Shown: positions 1,236 to 19,873, counted from the first letter of the stretch. The stretch: 20,000 nucleotides of DNA from an uncultured virus (IMG/VR IMGVR_UViG_3300037010_002878) (IMGVR_UViG_3300037010_002878:56398-76397); one strand, 5' to 3'. A program made the numbers and translations. The notes: generated from the letters alone by a model not told the origin.

Positions 1236-2591
1236 TTATTTAAAATCGTCTGCCCATTCTGCAATTCTAGAACGTACAGTTTTTGTTAATTTAATTGCTC
1301 CAATATTAACATCTTTGTTTTCTAACATTATTCGGTTAATCAAATATGTTAGAGCCGATGTGTGTTTATTGATATATTTGTTATCTATTTGTTTATTAGA
1401 ACCAATAGCAATTATTTTACAACCTTCTGTTACCCGAGTCAATGATGTTCTAATGCTAGCTACCGATTCATTTTGAATTTCATCTATAATTACAACAGCA
1501 TCTCTTATATTAGTTCCACGCAAAAAACCTTCAAACAAAGATGTTATTTGATATTCTTTAATCAAATCAATCATCTTATTCTCTAATTCTTCTTTAGTGA
1601 ATTTTCTATTTTGTTTAAATTTAGCATTGATTATTGCTTCTAAGTTAGAATACAATGGAGCCAAATAAGGAGATAATTTATCTTCTTGTGTTCCTGGAAG
1701 AAAGCCCATTTCTTCATCATCTGCATTTACTGTTTTTCTCATGTAAACGATTTTATTGAATCTTGTAGGATTCTTTTTTACTAATTTCATAGCTGCACTC
1801 AAAGCAATCAATGTTTTTCCAGAACCTGCTGGTGCATCTACTACAACTACATCATAAAATGGATCGTTTATCATACTAGAATATATTTTTTGTTCTATGT
1901 TTTGAGGTTTGATATCTTGGCGTTTAAGTTCATCTTCATTAATCTCATGAAATATGTTTCCAGATCTGTAATAGTAACTTCGATTTCCATCTTCTTTATA
2001 CAAACATAATCCAAAAATATTATCAGGAATTGATAAATCTTTAGCTTCAACTGCTTTAGGTAATGTATCTTCTTTATATTCAATTTCTTGATATAATTCC
2101 AAGTCTTCTTTGTAATCTCGACCCATACCTTCAGTTTTTAAACCTAAAGATATTGCTCTTAGTCTACACATAACATCATTAGAAATGAACACTATTGGAA
2201 TATCATAAAGTCTTTCACATTCTTCAGCTACCTCTAAAATTTTTCGGTCATTTAAAATGTGTCGGTCTACATTTCCTTCTACACTTTTGTATTTGTTTAA
2301 TGAAATAACATCTATAGTAATGTTTTTATCCGAATTGATAAACATTCTTGATATTGTGTAATCTGTATTTTTATCAGCGTACAATATATCAGCTTTCTCT
2401 AGCAAGCGTCCGAAAGATCTGGCTTGGAAATTTATTTCTTCAAACCCAGTCTTTTTAACATCAATTTCGTCCATTACCGTTTCTGGTAAAACTATCAAGT
2501 TAGATGATTGTTGAGATAAGATCTCAATATTAACTACATCATTCAAAATAACGTTCGTGTCTAAAACATAAATTTTTTCAAAATTATTCAA
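1236..2591 (-). CDS. phoH: PIN-domain PhoH-family ATPase
   Basis: N-terminal PIN motifs (YVLDTNV, ETVMDEID, NDRKIL, SNDVMCR) and PhoH motifs (APAGSGKT, MGFLPG, FLRGTNI, IIDEIQN, GSNKQID, VRSRIAEWA). TTG start. Confidence 0.92.
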   Translation of the reverse strand: MNNFEKIYVLDTNVILNDVVNIEILSQQSSNLIVLPETVMDEIDVKKTGFEEINFQARSFGRLLEKADILYADKNTDYTISRMFINSDKNITIDVISLNKYKSVEGNVDRHILNDRKILEVAEECERLYDIPIVFISNDVMCRLRAISLGLKTEGMGRDYKEDLELYQEIEYKEDTLPKAVEAKDLSIPDNIFGLCLYKEDGNRSYYYRSGNIFHEINEDELKRQDIKPQNIEQKIYSSMINDPFYDVVVVDAPAGSGKTLIALSAAMKLVKKNPTRFNKIVYMRKTVNADDEEMGFLPGTQEDKLSPYLAPLYSNLEAIINAKFKQNRKFTKEELENKMIDLIKEYQITSLFEGFLRGTNIRDAVVIIDEIQNESVASIRTSLTRVTEGCKIIAIGSNKQIDNKYINKHTSALTYLINRIMLENKDVNIGAIKLTKTVRSRIAEWADDFK

Positions 2592-2611
2592 TATACTGCC
2601 TCTAAAGGTGA

Positions 2612-2659
2612 TTAATCAAATCTTTCCTTCAAAGTCATATCAACATTCAATACCCACAT
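2612..2659 (-). CDS. putative 15-aa leader/micro-peptide MWVLNVDMTLKERFD
   Basis: AAGGAG RBS directly upstream of ATG at 2659 and TAA at 2612-2614; fills the gap upstream of phoH. Confidence 0.3.
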   Translation of the reverse strand: MWVLNVDMTLKERFD

Positions 2660-2686
2660 GTACTCCTTTATTTTAATTAAAAATAT

Positions 2687-3640
2687 TTATGATTCACGTC
2701 CTTTTAATATTAAAGAAGTGATGGATTTAGTTATTTTACGATCTGTATCCAAATTCAAGAAAATTTTAAATACATCTAGATGATTTTCTTTTAAATTGCT
2801 CAAAATAGAACCACGAGTTTCCAATTCTACACACCATAACATACTGAGTGCGGTAAGGGCTGAACTGACTGTGGCGTTTTTTACTATTTGTGTCTTAATG
2901 AAAAACTCAGTCAATTCAGATTTGTTCAATACATCCATAGATTTTAATAATGATTTTCTCAAATCATTTCCAATGATTTCTGGATCTTCAGATTCATGAT
3001 TTTCTACATATGCTTGAATATCATCTGATGTTATTTGTTCATCAAATTTACAAAAATAAGTATAAAAACGAGTCCCAATACTCTCTCCAATTTTTCCTTT
3101 TATTAAATCTAAAGTCAAAGGATTTTTCTTGGCATTTGGGATGTTTTTAAGAACGTCCGATAATTTAGTCCATGCTCGTGGAGTAGGATATTTTGAATCT
3201 TGAACTTCTACTGAACTCCAATGTAATTTGTCTGGATTATCACGAATGAAAGATCTAATAACTTTTAAGACATCATGATTTTCCGCCCATTTTAGCCAAG
3301 CGTTTGCATCAACAGTAACATTTAATGTTAAAAATCTGTCTAGCAATGCTGGGTCCATAGCTTCAACTTGATATCCATCTTCTGGATTAATACAAGCTGT
3401 AACCATAGCCGGAATACCTTTAAAATAAGGTAATGTATGTTGATGTATTTGTTTGCTTAGGATTAATTGAAGTGCAGCTTGTCTTATATCCAATGGTGCA
3501 CGATTTAACTCATCTAGTAATAATGAGGTGTGTTTACCTTTTGAATAATGAACGTGAGTGTTGTGTTTGCTCAACAGACTGTGGTCTGTTTCATAATACT
3601 GATTGTATAAGTTTTGAAGGATTTCTCGAGTTATTATCAT
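2687..3640 (-). CDS. MoxR/AAA_5-type ATPase, C-terminal half (Walker B, sensor I, Arg finger, sensor II; no Walker A)
   Basis: Motifs LLLDELNRA, ACINP, MDPALLDRF, YPTPRAW; no GxxGxGK. The start is probably ATG at 3640 (AGGA spacing) rather than 3646. Confidence 0.85.
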   Translation of the reverse strand: MIITREILQNLYNQYYETDHSLLSKHNTHVHYSKGKHTSLLLDELNRAPLDIRQAALQLILSKQIHQHTLPYFKGIPAMVTACINPEDGYQVEAMDPALLDRFLTLNVTVDANAWLKWAENHDVLKVIRSFIRDNPDKLHWSSVEVQDSKYPTPRAWTKLSDVLKNIPNAKKNPLTLDLIKGKIGESIGTRFYTYFCKFDEQITSDDIQAYVENHESEDPEIIGNDLRKSLLKSMDVLNKSELTEFFIKTQIVKNATVSSALTALSMLWCVELETRGSILSNLKENHLDVFKIFLNLDTDRKITKSITSLILKGRES

Positions 3641-3667
3641 AATCATTCCTGAAGGTTTATTTGTATT

Positions 3668-3689
3668 ATTATATCAGGTTGTTGCTTAA
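3668..3689 (-). promoter_or_regulatory. sigma70-type promoter (TTAAG-N8-TGATATAAT) for the ATPase C-terminal half
   Basis: Minus strand TTAAG CAACAACC TGATATAAT, matching the repeated promoter consensus. Confidence 0.7.
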
Positions 3690-3701
3690 AACAACCTGAT
3701 A
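3672..3701. repeat. perfect 12-bp inverted repeat (terminator or operator)
   Basis: TATCAGGTTGTT-gcttaa-AACAACCTGATA immediately after the bactofilin stop codon, overlapping the promoter. Confidence 0.7.
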
Positions 3702-3703
3702 AT

Positions 3704-4054
3704 TTAAACGGAATTTAAAGATTTTTTTATGGTTCCATTATATGTGCAGTTTGGATTTATATTCAACATAGATGTATAAGTAATATCTGATTCTACGTCA
3801 CCGGTAGGTTCAATAGTGATATTACTACAATTAATGTTTCCTTTATAAACTCCAGCGATAAAAACTTCGGAACATTCTATATCGGCAGTTAAAGAACCTC
3901 CAACTTCAATAAAAACACTTTTAGCTATGATTTTATTAGCTTCTACAGTGCCTTTTATGTAAACTTGATGAGAACTGGTTATCTCGCCTTTAAATGTAGA
4001 ATCTTTCCCGATTATTGTAAAATCGGGATTTTCTTTTTTGAAAAAATTAAGCAT
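3704..4054 (-). CDS. bactofilin (polymer-forming cytoskeletal protein, CcmA family)
   Basis: Typical beta-helix pattern TIIGKDSTFKGEI...VYIKGTVEA..I.AKSVFIEVGGSLTADIECSEVFIAGVYKGNINCSNITIEPTGDVESDI...LNINPNCTYNGTI; 116 aa. Confidence 0.88.
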   Translation of the reverse strand: MLNFFKKENPDFTIIGKDSTFKGEITSSHQVYIKGTVEANKIIAKSVFIEVGGSLTADIECSEVFIAGVYKGNINCSNITIEPTGDVESDITYTSMLNINPNCTYNGTIKKSLNSV

Positions 4055-4760
4055 ATCTTTCTTCCATTCTTTTGATTTTATCAGCTCTAGCTAAAACATC
4101 TAGAGCTTGTTTTCTACCTAAAGGACAGTCTGATTTATAATCAACTAGTGCCTCAAACGTGGACTGATGTTTAGAATATTTGTTCAAAATATATGCCCCG
4201 GCGGCTATAGCGTATTTTGGAATTTCCAAATCACTTGGTTTTCGGATAACATGATTGGCAATCAATTCTTTAGACCATATACCTGAAGCAACTCCTGTAA
4301 ATCCTTTTACACCAATGTGTATAGATGATCCAGCATTGTGTTTGACATTCTTCTTAAAAGAAGATTCAGAATCTATTAAACCGGTTAAAACCGTATGTTT
4401 AACATTTTCATACTTGTTTGAGGATTTGATGATTTCAGTAGCATAATAAGCAGCTTCTTTATCATCAACTTTAGGATTTTTCTCCTTAATATACATTGAA
4501 ATTACTTGTTTCTGAACATTAAATTTCTTCAACTCAGCTTCATTTCTTTCCAAATCTTTCTTAAGGCGCTCGATTTCTTGAGCTTTTTTATCATTGAGTT
4601 CTTTTACATTCTTATTCTCAATACGAATGTCGTTATAATACGAATCAATGTACAATTTAGCGCTATACACTGTCACTGCAACAAGTGCTACTAAACCGAC
4701 TATTAAATTTCGTTGAATTCTAATAGATTTCCGTAAATTATCAATTGGATTTATTACCAT
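4047..4760 (-). CDS. membrane-anchored SLT-like lytic transglycosylase with coiled-coil stalk
   Basis: N-terminal TM segment (LIVGLVALVAVTVYSA), coiled coil (~aa 45-85), SLT motif I (GLIDSESSF, catalytic Glu) and divergent motifs II/III (GFTGV, IAAGAYILNKY, ALVDYK). AGGAG RBS; 8-nt overlap with bactofilin. Confidence 0.75.
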   Translation of the reverse strand: MVINPIDNLRKSIRIQRNLIVGLVALVAVTVYSAKLYIDSYYNDIRIENKNVKELNDKKAQEIERLKKDLERNEAELKKFNVQKQVISMYIKEKNPKVDDKEAAYYATEIIKSSNKYENVKHTVLTGLIDSESSFKKNVKHNAGSSIHIGVKGFTGVASGIWSKELIANHVIRKPSDLEIPKYAIAAGAYILNKYSKHQSTFEALVDYKSDCPLGRKQALDVLARADKIKRMEERYA

Positions 4761-4789
4761 TATTGATCTCCTTTTTTCAATTTCGTTGG

Positions 4790-4887
4790 AAGATGAAACC
4801 TATCATCTTTTACCTACTTTCTTAAGAAAGTGCTTCAATCATTGTAACTATCTTTTTGTTTCATTTGCCAGAAAAACAAAAGTTACA
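4790..4887 (-). promoter_or_regulatory. cluster of three stem-loops upstream of the transglycosylase gene
   Basis: AAGATGA/TCATCTT (4790-4809), 16-bp palindrome ACTTTCTTAAGAAAGT (4816-4831), and a bulged stem TGTAACT..TTTGTTT / AAACAAA.AGTTACA (4843-4887). Confidence 0.5.
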
Positions 4888-4905
4888 TAACCTTACATTT
4901 TTAGG

Positions 4906-5430
4906 TTATTTGATTATATCAAAAACATCCTGAACAATACTTGAAGTAATTAGTTTAGATGAATATTGAACCTTATTTTGTGTCAACAACTCTACAAGAT
5001 CTCGATCTATCTGTATCGCCTCAGATTCTGATTGAGTTCGACCATATCCCTGATATGGGTGATGGTCTAAATTCCTGATGAGATAAATATTTATATTGTC
5101 ATAAGCATCATATGTGCTTTTAACAAAAGCTTTGAAATTATCTTCATTATAAATGGGGTTTTCTTGAAAGTAATGTAACGATAACAATAACGGGCTATCC
5201 GTTATAACATAATCTACTTTTCCTCTAAGTTTCCACAGCTTATGATGTTGTTTAGTAAAAATATACAATTGATCTTTAAGTTTAAAAAATGATTCTTGAT
5301 AAACTACGTCTTTGGCGTATTCTGTTACCAATTCTACTTTATAACCCATTGTTTTCATTAAATGAAACAATCCTGCAGCTGTAGTGCTTTTTCCGGTACC
5401 TGGACCGCCGAAAAAATTTATTACTTTCAT
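4906..5430 (-). CDS. P-loop kinase, NadR/AAA_28-like
   Basis: VINFFGGPGTGKST, ELVTEYAKD, YVITDSPLLLS, YQGYGRTQSESEA; common in large phages. Confidence 0.8.
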   Translation of the reverse strand: MKVINFFGGPGTGKSTTAAGLFHLMKTMGYKVELVTEYAKDVVYQESFFKLKDQLYIFTKQHHKLWKLRGKVDYVITDSPLLLSLHYFQENPIYNEDNFKAFVKSTYDAYDNINIYLIRNLDHHPYQGYGRTQSESEAIQIDRDLVELLTQNKVQYSSKLITSSIVQDVFDIIK

Positions 5431-5954
5431 GAGTCTCCTTTAATTCGGTTTAACTCTCTTTTTGCAAAGAAAATAATTTTATTCAAATCTCTTTCATATG
5501 TCGAATGATGCTCTACGCCAGATCTATACATAGCTTTGAATATATTACCTTGAGAAAAGTTCATATTTTTAAATTCAATGAGATCTTGCAAATCTTTAGC
5601 TCCCGCAGGAAGTTTATAATAATCTGTGCTTCCGCCATTATTTTTTGCTTCTTCTGGAACAGAATCATCATATAGAAGATAATCTTTAAAAGACCCTTTT
5701 TCTTCATTTTTATTTTTAGCTACATTCGCCAACTCATCAGGATTGATTCCAAATGTTTCCATTATGGTATCTAAAACTTCCATAATATCCGCTAGTTCTT
5801 CTAGAGATGTCAATCCAGTATCTATAAACTCTTGAGTTTCCTCTTTTAGTTTTAAAGAAAGATATTTTATTAAACTTTTTTTATCTGTTTGTTCAATATA
5901 AAATAACTTATCTTCTGGGATTATATCTTTATATTTGTCCCTTACTAACTTCAT
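5427..5954 (-). CDS. fusion of MazG-like (PRA-PH type) nucleotide pyrophosphohydrolase and DUF3310-like domain
   Basis: N-terminal MKLVRDK...KLKEETQEF...LEELADIMEVL...KNEEKGSF; C-terminal GGSTDYY...DLIEFKNMNFSQGNIFKAMYR...DLNKIIFFAKREL. Confidence 0.75.
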   Translation of the reverse strand: MKLVRDKYKDIIPEDKLFYIEQTDKKSLIKYLSLKLKEETQEFIDTGLTSLEELADIMEVLDTIMETFGINPDELANVAKNKNEEKGSFKDYLLYDDSVPEEAKNNGGSTDYYKLPAGAKDLQDLIEFKNMNFSQGNIFKAMYRSGVEHHSTYERDLNKIIFFAKRELNRIKGDS

Positions 5955-6303
5955 TCAATTCCTTTAGTTTTGAGTAAACGAAAGCCTTGAAGTCCTCATC
6001 CGAAAATTCTAAATCATCTACATCGAATTTAGCGGGCATAACCGCTTCTTCCATTTTTTGTAACCAAATAGGTTTCGTCCATGTATGAATAACCTCACCA
6101 TTACGTTCTATTGAACGTGGCATACCAATCAAATCACCCACTTCTTGGTTGGACAAGAATAATGTTTCATTATGCATATTATTTTCTGTAGCAAAATTAG
6201 CTACAACCTCTGATTTTCCAATCCCATGAGGGCCTTCAATCATTAAAGTTTCATTAGATTTGAAACAAATCTCTAATACACTTCGTATATTGCTAATTAA
6301 CAT
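5929..6303 (-). CDS. MoxR/AAA_5-type ATPase, N-terminal half (Walker A only)
   Basis: LMIEGPHGIGKSEVV, LFLSNQEVGDLIGMP, WTKPIWL; ends at aa 124, before Walker B. Confidence 0.85.
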   Translation of the reverse strand: MLISNIRSVLEICFKSNETLMIEGPHGIGKSEVVANFATENNMHNETLFLSNQEVGDLIGMPRSIERNGEVIHTWTKPIWLQKMEEAVMPAKFDVDDLEFSDEDFKAFVYSKLKELNEVSKGQI

Positions 6304-6397
6304 TTATTCTACCCTTCAATTCTGAAAATACATTACAAGATGAAAATACGCCATACATCATTATAGCAATGAATGTAATTGTTAAAAAATACGCCAT
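6293..6397 (-). CDS. small membrane peptide, 34 aa (MAYFLTITFIAIMMYGVFSSCNVFSELKGRINVN)
   Basis: AAGGAG RBS, ATG at 6397, hydrophobic N-terminus; the stop overlaps the start of the next gene; first ORF after the promoter at 6422. Confidence 0.55.
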   Translation of the reverse strand: MAYFLTITFIAIMMYGVFSSCNVFSELKGRINVN

Positions 6398-6421
6398 AGG
6401 ACTCCTTCTTTCTTACATTTA

Positions 6422-6442
6422 ATTATAACAGAAATTACCTTT
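6422..6442 (-). promoter_or_regulatory. sigma70-type promoter (extended -10 TGTTATAAT)
   Basis: Minus strand AAAGG TAATTTC TGTTATAAT; the upstream box is degenerate. Confidence 0.6.
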
Positions 6443-6450
6443 GAAACTTA

Positions 6451-7302
6451 TTAAAGTTTATTACAAAGCACCATTTCAACATTCTCGTCTGAGTAATTCA
6501 ATCTCTTAATGATTTGGATGAATCTTGTTCTGAAACATGGTTCTAACTCTGGGTTTTCTGGCTGTTTCAAATACGTTTCTTTTTTCCAAAGAATTCCATA
6601 TTTGTATTTATCTGGAATATCGCTCCAAAAATGACCAAGCTCTTCACATATCTCAACTAGTTCATTGCTTGTTTTGTTTTGACATTCTTTATGGGATAGA
6701 ATACTTTGAGCAAAAACGTTTTTAGAGTTTCGTTCACAATCTCTGGTTCTCCATAAAAGTGAATTAAATGCCTCAGTTTTATCTGGAACTTGAAAAACTC
6801 GAGCATCAAAAAATGCTCTTCCAATTTTTGTCTCCAAAAAAGAAACCTTATTGTTAATTTTATCATATTCTTTAGATAATTCAACAGAAGCAGATCTAAC
6901 ACGCATCAAACCTTCTTTCTCAGTGTATAATTTACTAAGAGTTTCTCTGATTAATTCATTGAACTTCATTGAAGCAAATGATGCCGCTAATGAAGTTAGT
7001 TTTTGAATTCTTCCAGAATAAATCAAGTTATCATCTGGAGCAAAAATCAAGGTGATTTCGTCAGATTGAGAATAAGCGCAAACTGCTTTAAATTCATCCA
7101 TCAATGCTCTAGCTGTTTCTGCTAATGCATTTGCTAAAAATTCATCGAAAGGTTTTGAGAAACCTTTCGTCCATTTAGAAAAGCCGTGCCCATCAATTCG
7201 CATGATGGAGTATTTGGATTTATCCAAATAAATCTCTGCACTTGCTTCATATTCTTTAATTCTATGACCGAATGGGTCTTTTTCTTGAATTTTTGAGGTC
7301 AT
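6451..7302 (-). CDS. tRNA(His) guanylyltransferase Thg1-like 3'-5' polymerase
   Basis: RIKEYE, IMRIDGHGFSKWT, KPFD, AYSQSDEITL, GRIQKLTS, FFDARVF, WRTRDCERNS, KYKYG. Confidence 0.92.
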   Translation of the reverse strand: MTSKIQEKDPFGHRIKEYEASAEIYLDKSKYSIMRIDGHGFSKWTKGFSKPFDEFLANALAETARALMDEFKAVCAYSQSDEITLIFAPDDNLIYSGRIQKLTSLAASFASMKFNELIRETLSKLYTEKEGLMRVRSASVELSKEYDKINNKVSFLETKIGRAFFDARVFQVPDKTEAFNSLLWRTRDCERNSKNVFAQSILSHKECQNKTSNELVEICEELGHFWSDIPDKYKYGILWKKETYLKQPENPELEPCFRTRFIQIIKRLNYSDENVEMVLCNKL

Positions 7303-7327: not shown

Positions 7328-7348
7328 ATTATAACAGTTTATTCTTAA
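7328..7348 (-). promoter_or_regulatory. sigma70-type promoter (TTAAG-N7-TGTTATAAT) for thg1-like gene
   Basis: Minus strand TTAAG AATAAAC TGTTATAAT, embedded in the last codons of the upstream gene. Confidence 0.75.
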
Positions 7349-8071: not shown

Positions 8072-9325
8072 TTATATACGGTAATTTTTAAAATTTTTAA
8101 ATTTAGAAAATCCATCCCAATCTTTACCTGAAGTGTTTAAGAAAAAACAAGGTACTTTTGGAGGAATTTTCCACTCTGTTGATGATTCTATCCACATATC
8201 ACTAATTATTACTATAGCGTTGTGGTCTATTTTATTATCTCTAATATATTCAATTGCTGGGTAAATTCTAGTTCCGCCATGAGCTGATCTATTAAATTTA
8301 GTGGTTGTTTTTGTTACCTCAGTTACTTCATGAATATCTGTATCGACTTGAATAACTTTTAGATTTGAATTAGTCAATTTACAAATTTCTTTAATTTCAT
8401 TCAAACCATCAGCCAACATTTTGTCTTGCATAGAGCCAGAAACATCCATGACTACAATTAAGTCAAATATACGATCTTTAGTTATTCCTTTAATTTCTTC
8501 TCTATTAGGGAATCTTCGATCTGGACGCATGATTGTTCTACGTTTATTTGCTTTTTTGTTTCCAACGATCCGTCTCAATTCTTTGCGCCAATCAACCACA
8601 GCTTTTTTTGTATATAAAGAAATCATGTCAGCGTAATCGCTTGGTTCATTTCCTCTAGATTTTTCAGAGGCTTTTTCTAACATATTTTTGGTAACTTCTT
8701 TTCTATATTCTTCATCCCCTTCTGATTCTTTATCATGAGCATCAATCGGTATATCAAAAGGTATATCAATTTCAGAACCATCTCCAAAACATTCATCAGA
8801 ATCTACATCTAAAGATCCTTTCTTAATTGCTTCTTCAAACAATTCTTCCATCTGTTTTTTTAGCTTTTCATCTTGCTCTTTTTTCTGATTATATTTCTCA
8901 TTATCAAGTAATGCAATATAATATTGCTCTGCCGAAAATCCTGCAGGTAAATCAAATTGACTATAATGAAGAGCTGTTTTTGGAAGATCTTTGATTAGCT
9001 GATTTATAGCTATATCTGTAGCATAATTCCATCTTTCATGGTCATCTTTTTTTCTAACTGTTACATGATTGTATGCTATATGAAACGCTTCATGAATTAA
9101 AATAGCTACTTTTTCTTTTTTTGTAAATTTATTGAACAGAATTGGATTTATAACCAAACCATATGTATAAGTATCAAAATAAACACCTGCAGGGGCTCTA
9201 AAAGATTTATCCATCGAAATTTTACATTGAGCCAATAAATGTGCATAAAATTGTAGATTATTTGTAGGATCTATCATATTTGCTACAATTTCTTCAAAAT
9301 AAAATCTATTTCCTGCAGTTTTCAC
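8072..9325 (-). CDS. HEXXH metallopeptidase-like plus vWA-domain protein (DUF2201-type), typical MoxR ATPase partner
   Basis: AILIHEAFHIAYNH, WNYATDIAINQ, SAEQYY, acidic linker, VDWRKELRR, RPDRRF, MIDAS DVSGSM, HGGT, ISDM. Confidence 0.88.
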   Translation of the reverse strand: MKTAGNRFYFEEIVANMIDPTNNLQFYAHLLAQCKISMDKSFRAPAGVYFDTYTYGLVINPILFNKFTKKEKVAILIHEAFHIAYNHVTVRKKDDHERWNYATDIAINQLIKDLPKTALHYSQFDLPAGFSAEQYYIALLDNEKYNQKKEQDEKLKKQMEELFEEAIKKGSLDVDSDECFGDGSEIDIPFDIPIDAHDKESEGDEEYRKEVTKNMLEKASEKSRGNEPSDYADMISLYTKKAVVDWRKELRRIVGNKKANKRRTIMRPDRRFPNREEIKGITKDRIFDLIVVMDVSGSMQDKMLADGLNEIKEICKLTNSNLKVIQVDTDIHEVTEVTKTTTKFNRSAHGGTRIYPAIEYIRDNKIDHNAIVIISDMWIESSTEWKIPPKVPCFFLNTSGKDWDGFSKFKNFKNYRI

Positions 9326-9707: not shown

Positions 9708-9728
9708 ATTATAACATAATAAACTTAG
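9708..9728 (-). promoter_or_regulatory. sigma70-type promoter
   Basis: Minus strand CTAAG TTTATTA TGTTATAAT. Confidence 0.7.
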
Positions 9729-10531: not shown

Positions 10532-10632
10532 TTTTCTTCCTTTTTAGCTTTATATTTAATTTTGGCAATCTTAATCATAGCATCTGACATAATCCATAAG
10601 CTTATGACAATGACAACTGTAATATTAATCAT
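10528..10632 (-). CDS. small membrane peptide, 34 aa (MINITVVIVISLWIMSDAMIKIAKIKYKAKKEEK)
   Basis: AGGAG RBS; ATGA overlaps with both flanking genes; hydrophobic N-terminus and basic tail. Confidence 0.65.
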   Translation of the reverse strand: MINITVVIVISLWIMSDAMIKIAKIKYKAKKEEK

Positions 10633-11402
10633 CTTCGCTCCTGCTGCAATTTCATACGCTTAGCAAAAAATTCTTTTGGGTCCAAAAATGCAATTTGAAA
10701 AGATTCCGGACATTTTTTAAGATAAACCTTGTCACCTTTTTCTAAACCGGTAATAGGAACCCCATCTACATATAAAGTAGGATTTGATCTTAATGATTCA
10801 ATTTTTATTTTGACTTTCTGTGGTTTCATCAATTCATTTATTCGATGATTAGAAACCACAGATGTAATGCTCCAAAGATTAGAGTCAATAGGCAATAATT
10901 TACCACCATTGTTCATATTAAACGCCGAGGAACCCAAAGGAGTGCTTACACAAATACCAGTTCCATTAAATTTAAATTCTTCAAAAGATCCATTCTTAGA
11001 AGAGATTTCAAAAGAATTCCAATCAGAAATGTCTGAGCCTATAATAACATCATTAATTGCTTCATATTCTCCAATCATACCAGATTGAAATTTTGTAATT
11101 ATTTTAATTTTAGGAGTTTTTATAATGGTTGGTTTTAATGTATCATTAAGCAATCCTTCAATAACACGAAAATCATTGCCAAAATTGTTCATGATGAAAT
11201 TAAGAGTGCCTAATCCTTTTCCAAAAAACGGGATAGCTTCATTATAATTCTTGTGGGCATGAAGCATGCTGCCATCACCGCCCACTACAAAGTACATTTC
11301 TGGATTTTCTTCATTCATCATCTCGGGAAATGATTTGGAAAGAAATCTGATATATGAATCTTGACGTGGATCATTTACATTTACAATAGCTTTAATTTTC
11401 AT
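10629..11402 (-). CDS. nadK: NAD(+) kinase
   Basis: VVGGDGSML, GTLNF, AINDV, GTGICVSTPLGSSAFNMNNGG, LYVDG. Confidence 0.9.
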   Translation of the reverse strand: MKIKAIVNVNDPRQDSYIRFLSKSFPEMMNEENPEMYFVVGGDGSMLHAHKNYNEAIPFFGKGLGTLNFIMNNFGNDFRVIEGLLNDTLKPTIIKTPKIKIITKFQSGMIGEYEAINDVIIGSDISDWNSFEISSKNGSFEEFKFNGTGICVSTPLGSSAFNMNNGGKLLPIDSNLWSITSVVSNHRINELMKPQKVKIKIESLRSNPTLYVDGVPITGLEKGDKVYLKKCPESFQIAFLDPKEFFAKRMKLQQERR

Positions 11403-12669: not shown

Positions 12670-12691
12670 ATTATAACATAAATATGTTTAA
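12670..12691 (-). promoter_or_regulatory. sigma70-type promoter
   Basis: Minus strand TTAAAC ATATTTA TGTTATAAT. Confidence 0.65.
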
Positions 12692-13202
12692 ATCAACATT
12701 AAGAAAAAATATGATATATTTAAAAACTAACGAAATACGACAAATTAAAGAGATGTTATTAGAGCAACAAGGTGGAATCTGTCCTATATCAAAAATTCCC
12801 ATTTTTGGTGAGATAGCAGTTCTAGATCATAAACATAAACTATTTAAAGATCAACCTTTAGGTGAAGATGGAGCAGGATTTTGTAGAGGAGTTTTGCATA
12901 GATCTGTTAACTCTTTTGAAGGAAAGGTTTTCAATGCATGGAGACGATTAGGTTTACATAAAATAGATATAACTTTGCCAGATCTTTTGAGAAATTTAGC
13001 AGACTATTTAGAAAGAGAACCAACCGAATATATACACCCAACTGAGGTTCCTAAAGAACCTAAATTAGGTAAAAATGAATTCAAAAAATTAGCTAAAATT
13101 TATTCGGAAAAATATCCTAAACGAAAACCATTAAAATATCCCAGCTCTGGAAAATGGACTAAGCAATTATTAGAACTTAAAAATGAACTCAATGTTGATT
13201 AA
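12684..13202 (+). CDS. endonuclease VII (T4 gp49)-like HNH-fold nuclease
   Basis: QQGGICPIS...AVLDHKH...CRGVLHRSVNSFEGK...LLRNLADYLE...YIHP. The true start may be ATG at 12711. Confidence 0.8.
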   Translation: MFKSTLRKNMIYLKTNEIRQIKEMLLEQQGGICPISKIPIFGEIAVLDHKHKLFKDQPLGEDGAGFCRGVLHRSVNSFEGKVFNAWRRLGLHKIDITLPDLLRNLADYLEREPTEYIHPTEVPKEPKLGKNEFKKLAKIYSEKYPKRKPLKYPSSGKWTKQLLELKNELNVD

Positions 13203-16956: not shown

Positions 16957-16978
16957 ATTATAACATAAAAAAACTTAA
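16957..16978 (-). promoter_or_regulatory. sigma70-type promoter
   Basis: Minus strand TTAAG TTTTTTTA TGTTATAAT. Confidence 0.7.
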
Positions 16979-17972: not shown

Positions 17973-18911
17973 TTAGAACGCTGAAAGATCAACTGTAAAT
18001 TTATAAAAGAAATCGCTATTTGTGCCAGTTTCATCACGATCTGCTGGATTTTTTGTTAATGCGTATCTGTTATTAACAAATATTTTCATTGTACCATCAT
18101 GACCTGATGTGGATTCATACACCTGTGTTACATAAGGTGAGAAAATATATCCTGCATCACCTGGGTCTTTCCCTTGATGTCCTACGATTACATAATCATC
18201 TGTTGCATTGTTATCGATATAAATCTGAAAATTTGCAACAGTCCCAAGGTAGTTTTTATGTTCTGTTTTCTCAACTGAATCTGAACCCAATGTTAACATC
18301 ATACCAATTGATGGTGTACAGATTACAAATGGGTTAAAGAAACGGTTTGTTTTTGATAGAATTTCCCCGTAAAGTTTTTGTGCTTTATAGATGATTGAGT
18401 GTGTACCACCATCAAAATCAGAATCTGTTTTAGGAATGAGATGCCCTGCATCTCCTGCACATGCACGAATATCAGCAATTAATGCACTATTCATATCTTC
18501 AATTAATGTGTTTTTCAACCAAGCTGCTAGGAAACTATAACCATCTTCTCCATACAAATTAATCATATCTTGTATAAATTCAATAGTGAAATCTGTTTCT
18601 AAAATGTGATCTTTTGCTGTTACTAAAGTTCTACGTGTTTCTATACCTGAACCAGGTCCTTCAATAACATTATCATTTGCATCACGTTTACGGCCAATTG
18701 CAATAATATGACCTTCTGGACCTGTTAATGGTTGTATACTACAAATTTGTCCTGCAAGTGAAGATGGGTAAACTTCTTTAATAAGTTCTCCAATAATTCT
18801 ATCCGTAGGTACAATATCTGCACTTGTAGTAGCTTCATCCATTTTCACTAGTTCTTGAATTTTTGTTTTTATTGAATTTTCAATAATTAAATCTAACTGT
18901 GATTTCTTCAT
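17973..18911 (-). CDS. gp23/gp24-family capsid protein paralogue (short, vertex-like)
   Basis: LIKEVYPSSLAGQICSIQPLTGPEGHIIAI, FTIEFIQDM, YLGTV, IYIDN, YVIVGHQG, DAGYIFSPYV, RYALTKNP; only 312 aa. Confidence 0.85.
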   Translation of the reverse strand: MKKSQLDLIIENSIKTKIQELVKMDEATTSADIVPTDRIIGELIKEVYPSSLAGQICSIQPLTGPEGHIIAIGRKRDANDNVIEGPGSGIETRRTLVTAKDHILETDFTIEFIQDMINLYGEDGYSFLAAWLKNTLIEDMNSALIADIRACAGDAGHLIPKTDSDFDGGTHSIIYKAQKLYGEILSKTNRFFNPFVICTPSIGMMLTLGSDSVEKTEHKNYLGTVANFQIYIDNNATDDYVIVGHQGKDPGDAGYIFSPYVTQVYESTSGHDGTMKIFVNNRYALTKNPADRDETGTNSDFFYKFTVDLSAF

Positions 18912-19067: not shown

Positions 19068-19532
19068 ATGGCACCGAAACAAGGATGGTATAACCTAAAA
19101 AAACCAGAAAAATATATTAACTCCAAACAATCATTAACTTCTGGAAAAGGAATAAGATATATGTCTAGCTGGGAGGAACGGTTTTTCTTATTTTGTGACA
19201 TGAACCCAGCTGTAAAAAAGTGGAGCTCAGAACCATTTCCTATACCTTATTTTAATGAGGCAGATCAAAAAATGCATAGATATTTTGTAGACTTATATAT
19301 GGAATATGAAGATAGTGGGGGAAATATTAGAAGATGTTTAGTGGAAATAAAACCATTAAAAGAAACTATGCCTCCAAAACCACCCAAAAAGAAAACATCT
19401 AAAAGCGTTTTAGGTTTTGAGAAAGCTATGAAAACATATATCACTAACCAATGTAAATGGAAAGCGGCTAGAGAATTTTGTGATTTAAATAAACTGGAAT
19501 TTCGTATTATTACAGAGGAAGATCTGTTTTAA
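19068..19532 (+). CDS. T4 gp4-like head completion nuclease (TnsA-like fold)
   Basis: PEKY, YMSSWEERFFLFCDMNPAVKKWSSE, IPY, HRYFVD, LVEIKP, NQCKWKAA, FRIITEEDL. Confidence 0.9.
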   Translation: MAPKQGWYNLKKPEKYINSKQSLTSGKGIRYMSSWEERFFLFCDMNPAVKKWSSEPFPIPYFNEADQKMHRYFVDLYMEYEDSGGNIRRCLVEIKPLKETMPPKPPKKKTSKSVLGFEKAMKTYITNQCKWKAAREFCDLNKLEFRIITEEDLF

Positions 19533-19873
19533 TCTTTGTAAAAGATTTCTACAGAATCATCTTTATATGTTGGTGAATCAGATTCCCATGAAGCATAAAA
19601 TTCAGAAGGATTTTTAACTTTAATCCAATCTTTTACAGCTTGTAATGTTGCTTTACCTTTTGCATCAACATACTCTTTTTTAGCATCTTCTTTCCAAGCT
19701 TTTACCTTTTTTAATGGATCGATTTGTTGACCGAAATTATACTCAGCAAATCCTTGGTCTGAACCCAAGGCATTTATTTTAACTACCCACGTTTTTTTAC
19801 CAACTTTTTTGATGAAGGGTTTAACACCAGCTTCATTCATTGAGTCTAGAACAAATTCTTTAAACTTATTCAT
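19529..19873 (-). CDS. hypothetical protein, possible internal head protein
   Basis: 114 aa; N-terminus MNKFKEF...MNE|A is similar to T4 IP capsid-targeting sequences. Confidence 0.7.
   Translation of the reverse strand: MNKFKEFVLDSMNEAGVKPFIKKVGKKTWVVKINALGSDQGFAEYNFGQQIDPLKKVKAWKEDAKKEYVDAKGKATLQAVKDWIKVKNPSEFYASWESDSPTYKDDSVEIFYKD

Follow-up and report, generated by a model that had tools for sequence, protein, structure and literature searches.

The genes in pieces described for T4-like phages include nrdA-a/mobE/nrdA-b of Aeh1, gene 39/mobA/60 of T4, and gene 43A/43B of Aeromonas phages 25 and 44RR (PMC2988022). We analyzed a stretch of 20,000 nucleotides (the window) that forms the terminal 20 kb, positions 56398-76397, of the 76,397-base IMG/VR record IMGVR_UViG_3300037010_002878 of an uncultured virus, the completeness of which was judged to be 51%. 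The window contains a MoxR-type AAA+ ATPase gene divided into two open reading frames (ORFs), an N-half with the Walker A motif and a C-half with the Walker B motif, which are separated by four other genes (Table 1). A T4-type capsid-family gene is present in the window, and the virus is an uncultured T4-like phage. The gene in pieces of T4-like phages is the closest known kind of arrangement: the phage type is the same, the enzyme gene that is single in relatives forms two collinear ORFs, and the products must reassemble. Between the pieces described in PMC2988022 there is either a single homing-endonuclease gene or a short spacer that is not translated, whereas four genes without an endonuclease signature lie between the halves of the ATPase, and five or six in the related locus L010. 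Furthermore, unlike in the T4-like cases, the cut runs through the nucleotide-binding core of the AAA+ fold.

The NorQ/NorD and CbbQ/CbbO systems (PDB: 9qh4-9qhg, 6l1q) resemble the phage ATPase in that their ATPases are the nearest solved folds of its intact homologue P0026 and that a vWA partner gene is located nearby. NorQ and CbbQ are single chains of about 250-270 residues, whereas the phage protein has an additional insert of ~65 residues, a helical tail of ~150 residues, and two chains. The phage partner contains a metallopeptidase domain, unlike NorD and CbbO. The same pair of genes, for a MoxR ATPase and a DUF2201-type metallopeptidase-vWA protein, proposed to function in virion assembly, is present in group 2.2 jumbo phages, but the genes described there are intact (PMC7824862). 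The MoxR ATPase of phage Bas54, reported to be needed against the predicted defence system DS-28, is also encoded by an intact gene, unlike that of the window (PMC13716836). The fractured genes with split inteins described in PMC2677866 likewise include an ATPase-type gene in two pieces with genes in between; unlike in those genes, there is no intein here, and the chains would stay unjoined. A literature search for a split ATPase of the AAA+ or MoxR type, limited to bioRxiv and the open part of PubMed Central, returned nothing relevant.

The two ORFs are probably a working gene in pieces, from which the ATPase is translated as two chains from separate genes that are predicted to reassemble. 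A preliminary description of the window had proposed a functional two-chain ATPase, assembled in trans and broken within an insertion between the Walker motifs. Conservation, selection, and a two-chain model support this proposal, with binding and activity being predicted, and all the tests proposed there that could be run came out in its favour. The two minus-strand ORFs and their motifs can be read directly from the sequence: GPHGIGKS (Walker A) and GDLIGMP in the N-half, and LLLDELNRA (Walker B), INP, DPALLDRF, and TPRAW in the C-half.

The halves are collinear and non-redundant, as the preliminary description had claimed. Because their matches to the family phrog_1297 ('ATPase') cover positions 11-96 and 97-310 of 356, the two ORFs correspond to abutting, non-overlapping parts of one family; these are the only two phrog_1297 matches in the whole 76,397-base record. 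Residues 1-92 of the N-half align to nucleotides 28480-28755 of Vibrio phage Va1 with 54% identity, and residues 35-319 of the C-half to nucleotides 28744-29583 with 34% identity, both within the single coding sequence 28480-29589. The gene of the Va1 group is the best match of both halves in the phage collection. Both halves match each of the 124 collected intact homologues, with a median gap of -1 residue in the subject, and they have the same closest intact homologues without overlapping. Alteromonas phage AD45-P1 encodes an intact 435-residue ATPase directly after a COG3864/DUF2201 gene, and this ATPase matches residues 5-124 of the N-half, including its tail. The homologues from rV5-like phages are annotated as MoxR ATPases.

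The family occurs in three forms, which are short intact proteins of 365-373 residues, long intact proteins of 429-439 residues, and split proteins. The long intact forms contain an insert of ~65 residues between the WxKPxWL helix and Walker B, which is unbroken in L017, L019, L023, P0026, P0029, P0062, and AD45-P1 (L and P numbers denote loci and proteins from our searches). Both sides of the insert are conserved, as DLxFxDxxFKxFV in the N-half tail and as ITRxxLxxLYxxFY in the C-half head, and the cut is located in the variable linker between them. The N-half spans residues 1-103 and the C-half residues 122-416 of the long form P0026. The AlphaFold model of P0026, calculated from a 31-row alignment, has a pLDDT of 92.2. 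Its insert follows alpha2 (H79-88), precedes the Walker B strand (E159-164), and is composed of E92-94, E98-100, H103-112, the loop 113-120, E121-123, H124-134, H143-147, and E151-153. The break corresponds, in this model, to the surface loop 113-120 of the insert. The continuity of the insert in the homologues of 429-439 residues agrees with the proposed position of the break between the Walker motifs.

The N-half contains beta1, Walker A, alpha1, beta2, the helix-2 insert hairpin, alpha2, and the first part of the insert with the DLEFSDEDFKAFV helix. The C-half begins with the second part of the insert, which includes the ITREILQNLYNQYY helix, and continues with Walker B, INP, DPALLDRF, the TPRAW lid, and a helical C-terminal domain. 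Residues G24, H26, G27, I28, G29, and K30 are invariant across 13 N-halves. Invariant in the C-half alignment A4 are D43 and E44 of Walker B, together with N85/P86, R102 of DPALLDRF, and P154/R155/W157, which we take to be the sensor 1, Arg finger, and sensor 2 positions. Against Pfam, the C-half matches AAA_3 with 18 bits, compared to a cut-off of 27, and the N-half has weak generic P-loop matches only. The intact homologues carry precomputed matches to PF07728, PF07726, and PF20030. A profile search against the PDB produced 2r44 as the sole match (E 0.0057), and a search of NCBIfam produced nothing useful.

The closest solved folds to the model of P0026 are NorQ (PDB: 9qh4; E 1.6e-8, TM by target 0.61), NorQ-NorD complexes, and CbbQ (PDB: 6l1q), followed by McrB. 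Because NorQ, NorQ-NorD, and CbbQ are its nearest solved folds, the modelled homologue indicates that the label 'MoxR-type' is correct at the level of the fold. The helix-2 insert and pre-sensor-1 hairpins mark the clade that includes MoxR, McrB, dynein, and MCM. The model of P0026 is predicted to contain both, with the hairpin E62-67/E70-75 positioned between H55-59 and H79-88 and the strands 184-199 ahead of beta4. Each protomer of the MoxR family is one polypeptide, whereas here it is divided between two genes 2.3 kb apart.

The split and its breakpoint are conserved in relatives. A profile scan of IMG/VR produced at least 600 stretches, of which 162 were confirmed as relatives and 80 loci were kept. 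One of these, L009, is a 96.4-kb contig of the same virus, with identity over 14,303 bases. L010, L011, and L012 are split likewise, with 53-58% amino-acid identity in each half, and their halves are separated by 3.8, 2.3, and 2.4 kb, respectively. The 14 next-best loci, L013-L026, are all intact, with 11 short and three long forms. The profile matches (not ORFs) in L027-L088 are at most about 190 bases apart where both were found, and four of these loci have one match.

Stand-alone halves were also found among database proteins. A length-restricted search with the N-half identified 16 proteins at E ≤ 0.001 among 25 candidates. Apart from the query, 12 of the 16 are stand-alone proteins of 110-125 residues with 41-79% identity that end within a few residues of one column; P0011, P0015, and P0016 look like fragments of intact genes. 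The search with the C-half was evaluated for 120 of its 151 matches. Among the matches listed, P0018-P0022 (313-316 residues, 52-75% identity) and P0030, P0045, and P0048 (312-321 residues, 33-36% identity) are stand-alone C-halves that all begin with methionine at one alignment column, and the other proteins that contain a Walker A motif have 326-438 residues. Relatives with 75-79% identity are separate proteins of 124 and 316 residues encoded on equally long contigs (11,659 and 14,697 bases), and probably share the same contigs. A scan of genome contigs with the N-half alignment produced at least 600 stretches, of which 80 loci were kept; among the four best loci examined by tblastn, the first two, L097 and L098, had their ORFs checked and are intact short forms. 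The nearest genome-binned homologues are both intact and belong to contigs of Campylobacterales and Arcobacteraceae metagenome-assembled genomes, which is a weak hint of a host among these groups.

The ratios of non-synonymous to synonymous substitution rates (dN/dS), calculated by the method of Nei and Gojobori (NG86), indicate that both halves are under purifying selection, a check that the preliminary description had proposed for each half. Among L010-L012, dN/dS is 0.101-0.109 for the N-half, and 0.054 and 0.095 for the C-half, for which the third pair gave no dS. The neighbouring genes have ratios of 0.135-0.170 (kinase) and 0.117-0.120 (SLT).

The two chains, folded together with ATP using alignments A4 and A3, reached ipSAE values of 0.80, 0.80, and 0.79, compared to 0.00 for the best of three controls; the ipSAE mark is reached by 116 of 157 solved complexes and two of 215 mismatched pairs. 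At least 96% of the contacts are common to the runs, with a partner pLDDT of 86 or more. As in an ordinary AAA+ sheet, the closest modelled contacts place N-half residues 44-48 next to C-half residues 36-42, so that beta2 lies beside beta3, the Walker B strand, and N-half residues 20-21 next to C-half residues 104-105. Furthermore, N-half residues 98-99 contact C-half residues 31-32, and a helix face formed by N-half residues 105-117 lies against C-half residues 1-16 within the insert. The residues of the insert that face each other in the model are conserved: F100, D102, F105, and V109 of the N-half, and ITR..L..LY..FY of the C-half head. The model shows that both sequences remain compatible with a single fold, and not that the chains bind.

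The N-half would supply beta1, beta2, the P-loop with Walker A, and the helix-2 insert, and the C-half would supply beta3-beta5 with Walker B, sensor 1, and the Arg finger, as well as the sensor 2 lid and the helical tail. Because neither chain alone can form the five-stranded core, the two must co-fold, and are expected to produce one ATPase module. The helices on either side of the break are predicted to pack on each other, which may aid docking. By analogy to NorQ/NorD and CbbQ/CbbO, the reassembled protomer would assemble into a hexamer, as is usual in the family, and work together with the metallopeptidase-vWA protein encoded in the window.

Several points weigh against the working gene in pieces. 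The dS values of the halves are 0.8-1.9, which is near saturation, and several pairs of the window and a relative were saturated and gave no dS. Neither half alone reaches the Pfam gathering score. The complex model may owe its success to single-chain AAA+ folds that the prediction tool had memorized, and the custom alignments and the ATP ligand lay outside the calibration of the complex tool. The six C-halves of the window's clade are separated from the other proteins in a tree by a stem of 1.0 changes per column, which could mean a changed function and not just a long separation. Additionally, the 51%-complete contig leaves room for an intact second copy elsewhere in the genome.

The long stem and the distance of 2.3-3.8 kb with unrelated genes between the halves would also be expected if both halves were kept but no longer cooperated, with the C-half acting, for example, as an ATP-independent vWA adaptor and the N-half as a small nucleotide-binding protein. 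We consider this improbable, although it is the alternative that survives best. Walker A, Walker B, INP, DPALLDRF, and PR-W are invariant or nearly so in the split forms, and the mutually facing residues of the insert are conserved in both halves. According to the AAA+ topology in the model of P0026, beta1 and beta2, the only strands of the N-half, do not suffice for a stable P-loop fold.

That the ORFs are decaying remnants of a gene destroyed by an insertion or rearrangement is very unlikely. The gene is interrupted and neither half reaches the Pfam cut-off, but decay is already contradicted by dN/dS values of 0.05-0.11 for the two halves, by open frames and intact motifs even in relatives with as little as 53% identity, and by the conserved start signals.

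The halves might instead end up as one polypeptide through an event that follows transcription or translation, whether a split intein, trans-splicing, an intron, or ribosomal bypass, and fractured genes with split inteins, in which the pieces of an ATPase-type gene have genes between them, do occur in phages (PMC2677866). We give such joining as little credence as decay: neither half has a Pfam intein or HINT match at E ≤ 0.01, and no Rfam family reaches its gathering score in the window. The junction is composed of only ~35 + 35 residues that form an ordinary folded insert in the intact long homologues, and no Cys, Ser, or Thr is conserved there, the residues after HN of the head being T, N, S, T, T, and D. 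The gap, moreover, contains four conserved, separately translatable genes. Searches of Pfam and PHROGs identified no homing endonuclease, nuclease, or recombinase among the gap ORFs of the window and L010-L012. The four-gene block is not flanked by long repeats, whether direct or inverted, and the largest repeat families are imperfect two-copy matches of at most 37 bases; therefore, nothing suggests an excisable element.

The arrangement is almost certainly not an assembly artefact: the record is metagenome-assembled and only 51% complete, but misassembly is excluded by independent assemblies with the same arrangement, among them the second IMG/VR contig (L009) and contigs of the sequencing runs X2, X4, and X5, and the gene order is common to three diverged relatives. 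Run X2, the possible source, contains the stretch in one contig with zero differences, and run X4 in four contigs with 0-2 differences. A variant with ~96% identity from wastewater, a different habitat (run X5), has one 22.6-kb contig that spans 2400-6600, the only indels of which, at 2679 and 4893, are both intergenic. Among the 40 of its 189 differences that were listed, 28 are in the C-half, where 17 affect third codon positions and 18 are synonymous. Run X7 also carries the ~96% variant. No RNA data set is among the sequencing runs listed as containing the stretch, and the wastewater runs labelled 'RNA-Seq' probably contain DNA. A 134-base contig of X4 touches both halves, but matches 3488-3508 with only 21 bases and 6058-6081 with only 24 bases, and has 54 other bases in between. 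It was rejected as an excised or joined form of the gene; matches of this kind, at the two most conserved motifs, are what an uninterrupted short-form ATPase gene from another phage would produce, and the contig most likely originates from such a gene in the same sample.

A tree was calculated from Walker B to the end for 67 rows, consisting of 53 of the 120 listed proteins and 14 locus proteins, by a quick method without bootstraps; several of its branches are long, and L019 was omitted, as its DEYSR was missed by the motif pattern. In this tree, the six C-halves from the clade of the window cluster together (SH-aLRT 100). The other stand-alone C-halves occupy three different places in the tree beside intact forms: P0045 clusters with the long intact P0026 and P0029 (SH-aLRT 99), P0048 with P0061 (SH-aLRT 100), and P0030 with the short intact P0035 (SH-aLRT 96). 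P0030 is nearest to short intact forms without the insert, with 73% identity to L094 over residues 31-312. On the branches with strong support, the label 'split' has to change four times. P0009, P0010, and P0012-P0014 are stand-alone N-halves that terminate in the same column as the N-half of the window. DNA searches with P0012, P0030, P0045, and P0048, which represent other split lineages, found intact relatives only, or nothing.

These observations can be combined into one reading, which we regard as speculative and rather unlikely as a whole. The ~65-residue insert would be a built-in docking module, its loop a recurrent fission point, and the gap a stable home for an envelope and nucleotide module of kinase, lytic transglycosylase, and bactofilin, the expression of which is interleaved with that of the halves. 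If fission is recurrent, the ATPase was cut, or the cut was moved by recombination, at least four times; if the gap holds such a module, the motor would be assembled only once the whole block is expressed.

AAA+ motors are assumed to require an uninterrupted alpha/beta core. If the ATPase functions as two chains, the AAA+ core tolerates fission at the alpha2-beta3 junction, a small insert may serve as a docking device, and the cut provides protein engineers with a natural split site for conditional AAA+ motors. The locus would also represent a gene in pieces without the usual selfish endonuclease and with non-adjacent halves. Such genes will escape automatic annotation, as neither half reaches the Pfam cut-off.

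The start of the C-half is preceded by conserved signals (Table 1). The first ATG of its frame, at 3646, would produce 319 residues, but the AGGA is better placed for the ATG at 3640, which lies six bases downstream of it and with which the database protein P0017 begins. The motif TGATATAAT occurs at the same place in L010 and L011, and is replaced by CGTTATAAT in L012. The 3' arm of the hairpin formed by ATCAGGTTGTT and AACAACCTGAT overlaps the TG of the -10 motif. Hairpins follow the bactofilin-like gene in L010 and L011 too, and are succeeded by TTTAAG(C/T), TGATATAAT, AAGGA, and ATG. The hairpin of the window was rejected as a canonical intrinsic terminator, as it has no T-run, and the terminator scan did not list it. 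The preliminary description had assigned a consensus promoter and a ribosome-binding site to the C-half. The ribosome-binding site and a conserved extended -10 element stand, but the promoter is not a consensus one: no consensus -35 was found upstream of TGATATAAT, and a generic two-hexamer sigma-70 scan detected no site at 3668-3689 and 21 sites in the window versus 22 expected from shuffled sequences.

The motif TGNTATAAT occurs 12 times in the window compared to 2.8 expected, a count reached in none of 200 shuffles. Ten of the 12 copies are on the coding strand, and most are positioned 20-60 bases ahead of a start codon; further examples are found at 646-654, 7328-7336, 9708-9716, 12670-12678, and 16957-16965. 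The motif is probably a common promoter element of the phage without a conserved -35, and each half is likely to have its own promoter of the same class. The direct repeat AAAATACGCCATA upstream of the N-half may be an operator. The preliminary description had suggested separate control of the two halves. This finds no support because the same TGNTATAAT-type motif precedes both, and nothing suggests different timing.

Table 1. Positions of the ATPase halves, the genes between them, the presumed partner, and the expression signals in the 20,000-nucleotide window.
Feature	Position	Strand	Remarks
N-half, MoxR-type AAA+ ATPase	5929..6303	-	124 residues; phrog_1297 E 2.5e-12
C-half, MoxR-type AAA+ ATPase	2687..3640	-	317 residues; phrog_1297 E 8.1e-38
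First gap gene	5427..5954	-	175 residues; N-terminal domain weakly PRA-PH/MazG-like; C-terminal small domain of ~70 residues
Second gap gene, AAA_28 P-loop kinase-like	4906..5430	-	174 residues; PF13521 E 1.8e-11; phrog_2107 E 1.1e-20
Third gap gene, SLT-type lytic transglycosylase	4047..4760	-	237 residues; PF01464 E 4.8e-6; N-terminal hydrophobic segment
Fourth gap gene, bactofilin	3704..4054	-	116 residues; PF04519 E 7.5e-20
Presumed partner, metallopeptidase (HEAFH) and vWA-like domain	8072..9325	-	417 residues; DUF2201_N E 2.3e-20; DUF2201 E 6.7e-12
AGGA ribosome-binding site of C-half	3647..3650	-	AAGGA at equal distance in L010-L012
Extended -10-like motif TGATATAAT	3668..3676	-	28 bases upstream of ATG 3640
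Perfect 11-bp hairpin, ATCAGGTTGTT / AACAACCTGAT, loop TTAAGC	3673..3700	-	Just after bactofilin stop codon
Two TGNTATAAT motifs upstream of N-half start	6360-6368, 6422-6430	-	Each near 13-mer AAAATACGCCATA
Exact 13-base direct repeat AAAATACGCCATA	6343-6355, 6386-6398		43 bases apart, upstream of N-half

The GC content of the window is 26-32%, and the minus strand carries nearly all the genes. A megablast search with positions 2500-6500 of the window against the phage collection found no match. The final 26 bases of the N-half are shared with the start of the first gap gene. The preliminary description had listed the four gap genes as a MazG fusion, a kinase, a transglycosylase, and a bactofilin. 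The last three are confirmed by Pfam matches, whereas the MazG assignment is weak, as the PRA-PH match has E 0.012 and 16.4 bits versus a cut-off of 21.3. The C-terminal small domain of the first gap gene matches phrog_4521 (E 7.6e-12) and phrog_4897 (E 5.8e-7), and in PHROGs it forms the C-terminus of nucleotide kinases from phages (phrog_4897, 236, 7063). It forms a gene of its own, encoding 90-93 residues, in L010 (11680-11961), L011 (4063-4335), and L012 (3897-4178), and is always ahead of the AAA_28 kinase gene, both there and in the window. The order common to L010-L012 is vWA, Thg1, N-half, small kinase-associated domain, AAA_28 kinase, SLT, bactofilin, C-half, PhoH, orf182, and ligase. 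The kinase of the window has 61-64% identity to those of L010-L012, in which the SLT gene is kept and bactofilin domains occur at the equivalent position, so that the bactofilin-SLT pair is conserved. The gap of L010 contains an extra 329-residue ORF that matches phrog_2475 (function unknown) only.

The HEXXH-vWA gene that the preliminary description had named as partner is identified by its DUF2201_N and DUF2201 matches. A homologue of the vWA protein is encoded ~0.1-6 kb from the ATPase in most related loci and adjoins it in AD45-P1. Other phage genes of the window encode a Thg1-type tRNA-His guanylyltransferase and an NAD kinase-like protein (6451-7302, 10629-11402). An endonuclease VII-like ORF (12684-13202, plus strand; PF02945 E 9e-5, just below the cut-off) is situated amid minus-strand genes and is possibly a free-standing homing endonuclease.

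The gp23-like ORF 17973-18911 was considered as a second split gene and rejected, as its 312-residue protein matches proteins of ~300 residues from CP220 and the Va1 group over 96% of its length. This gp23-family protein covers positions 131-375 only of the Pfam Gp23 profile, and it is probably a whole gp24-like vertex protein. The 114-residue ORF 19529-19873, upstream of its gene, has no match in phages. A TnsA-like endonuclease ORF (E 5e-22) is located at 19068-19532 on the plus strand, upstream of the gene for the 312-residue protein.

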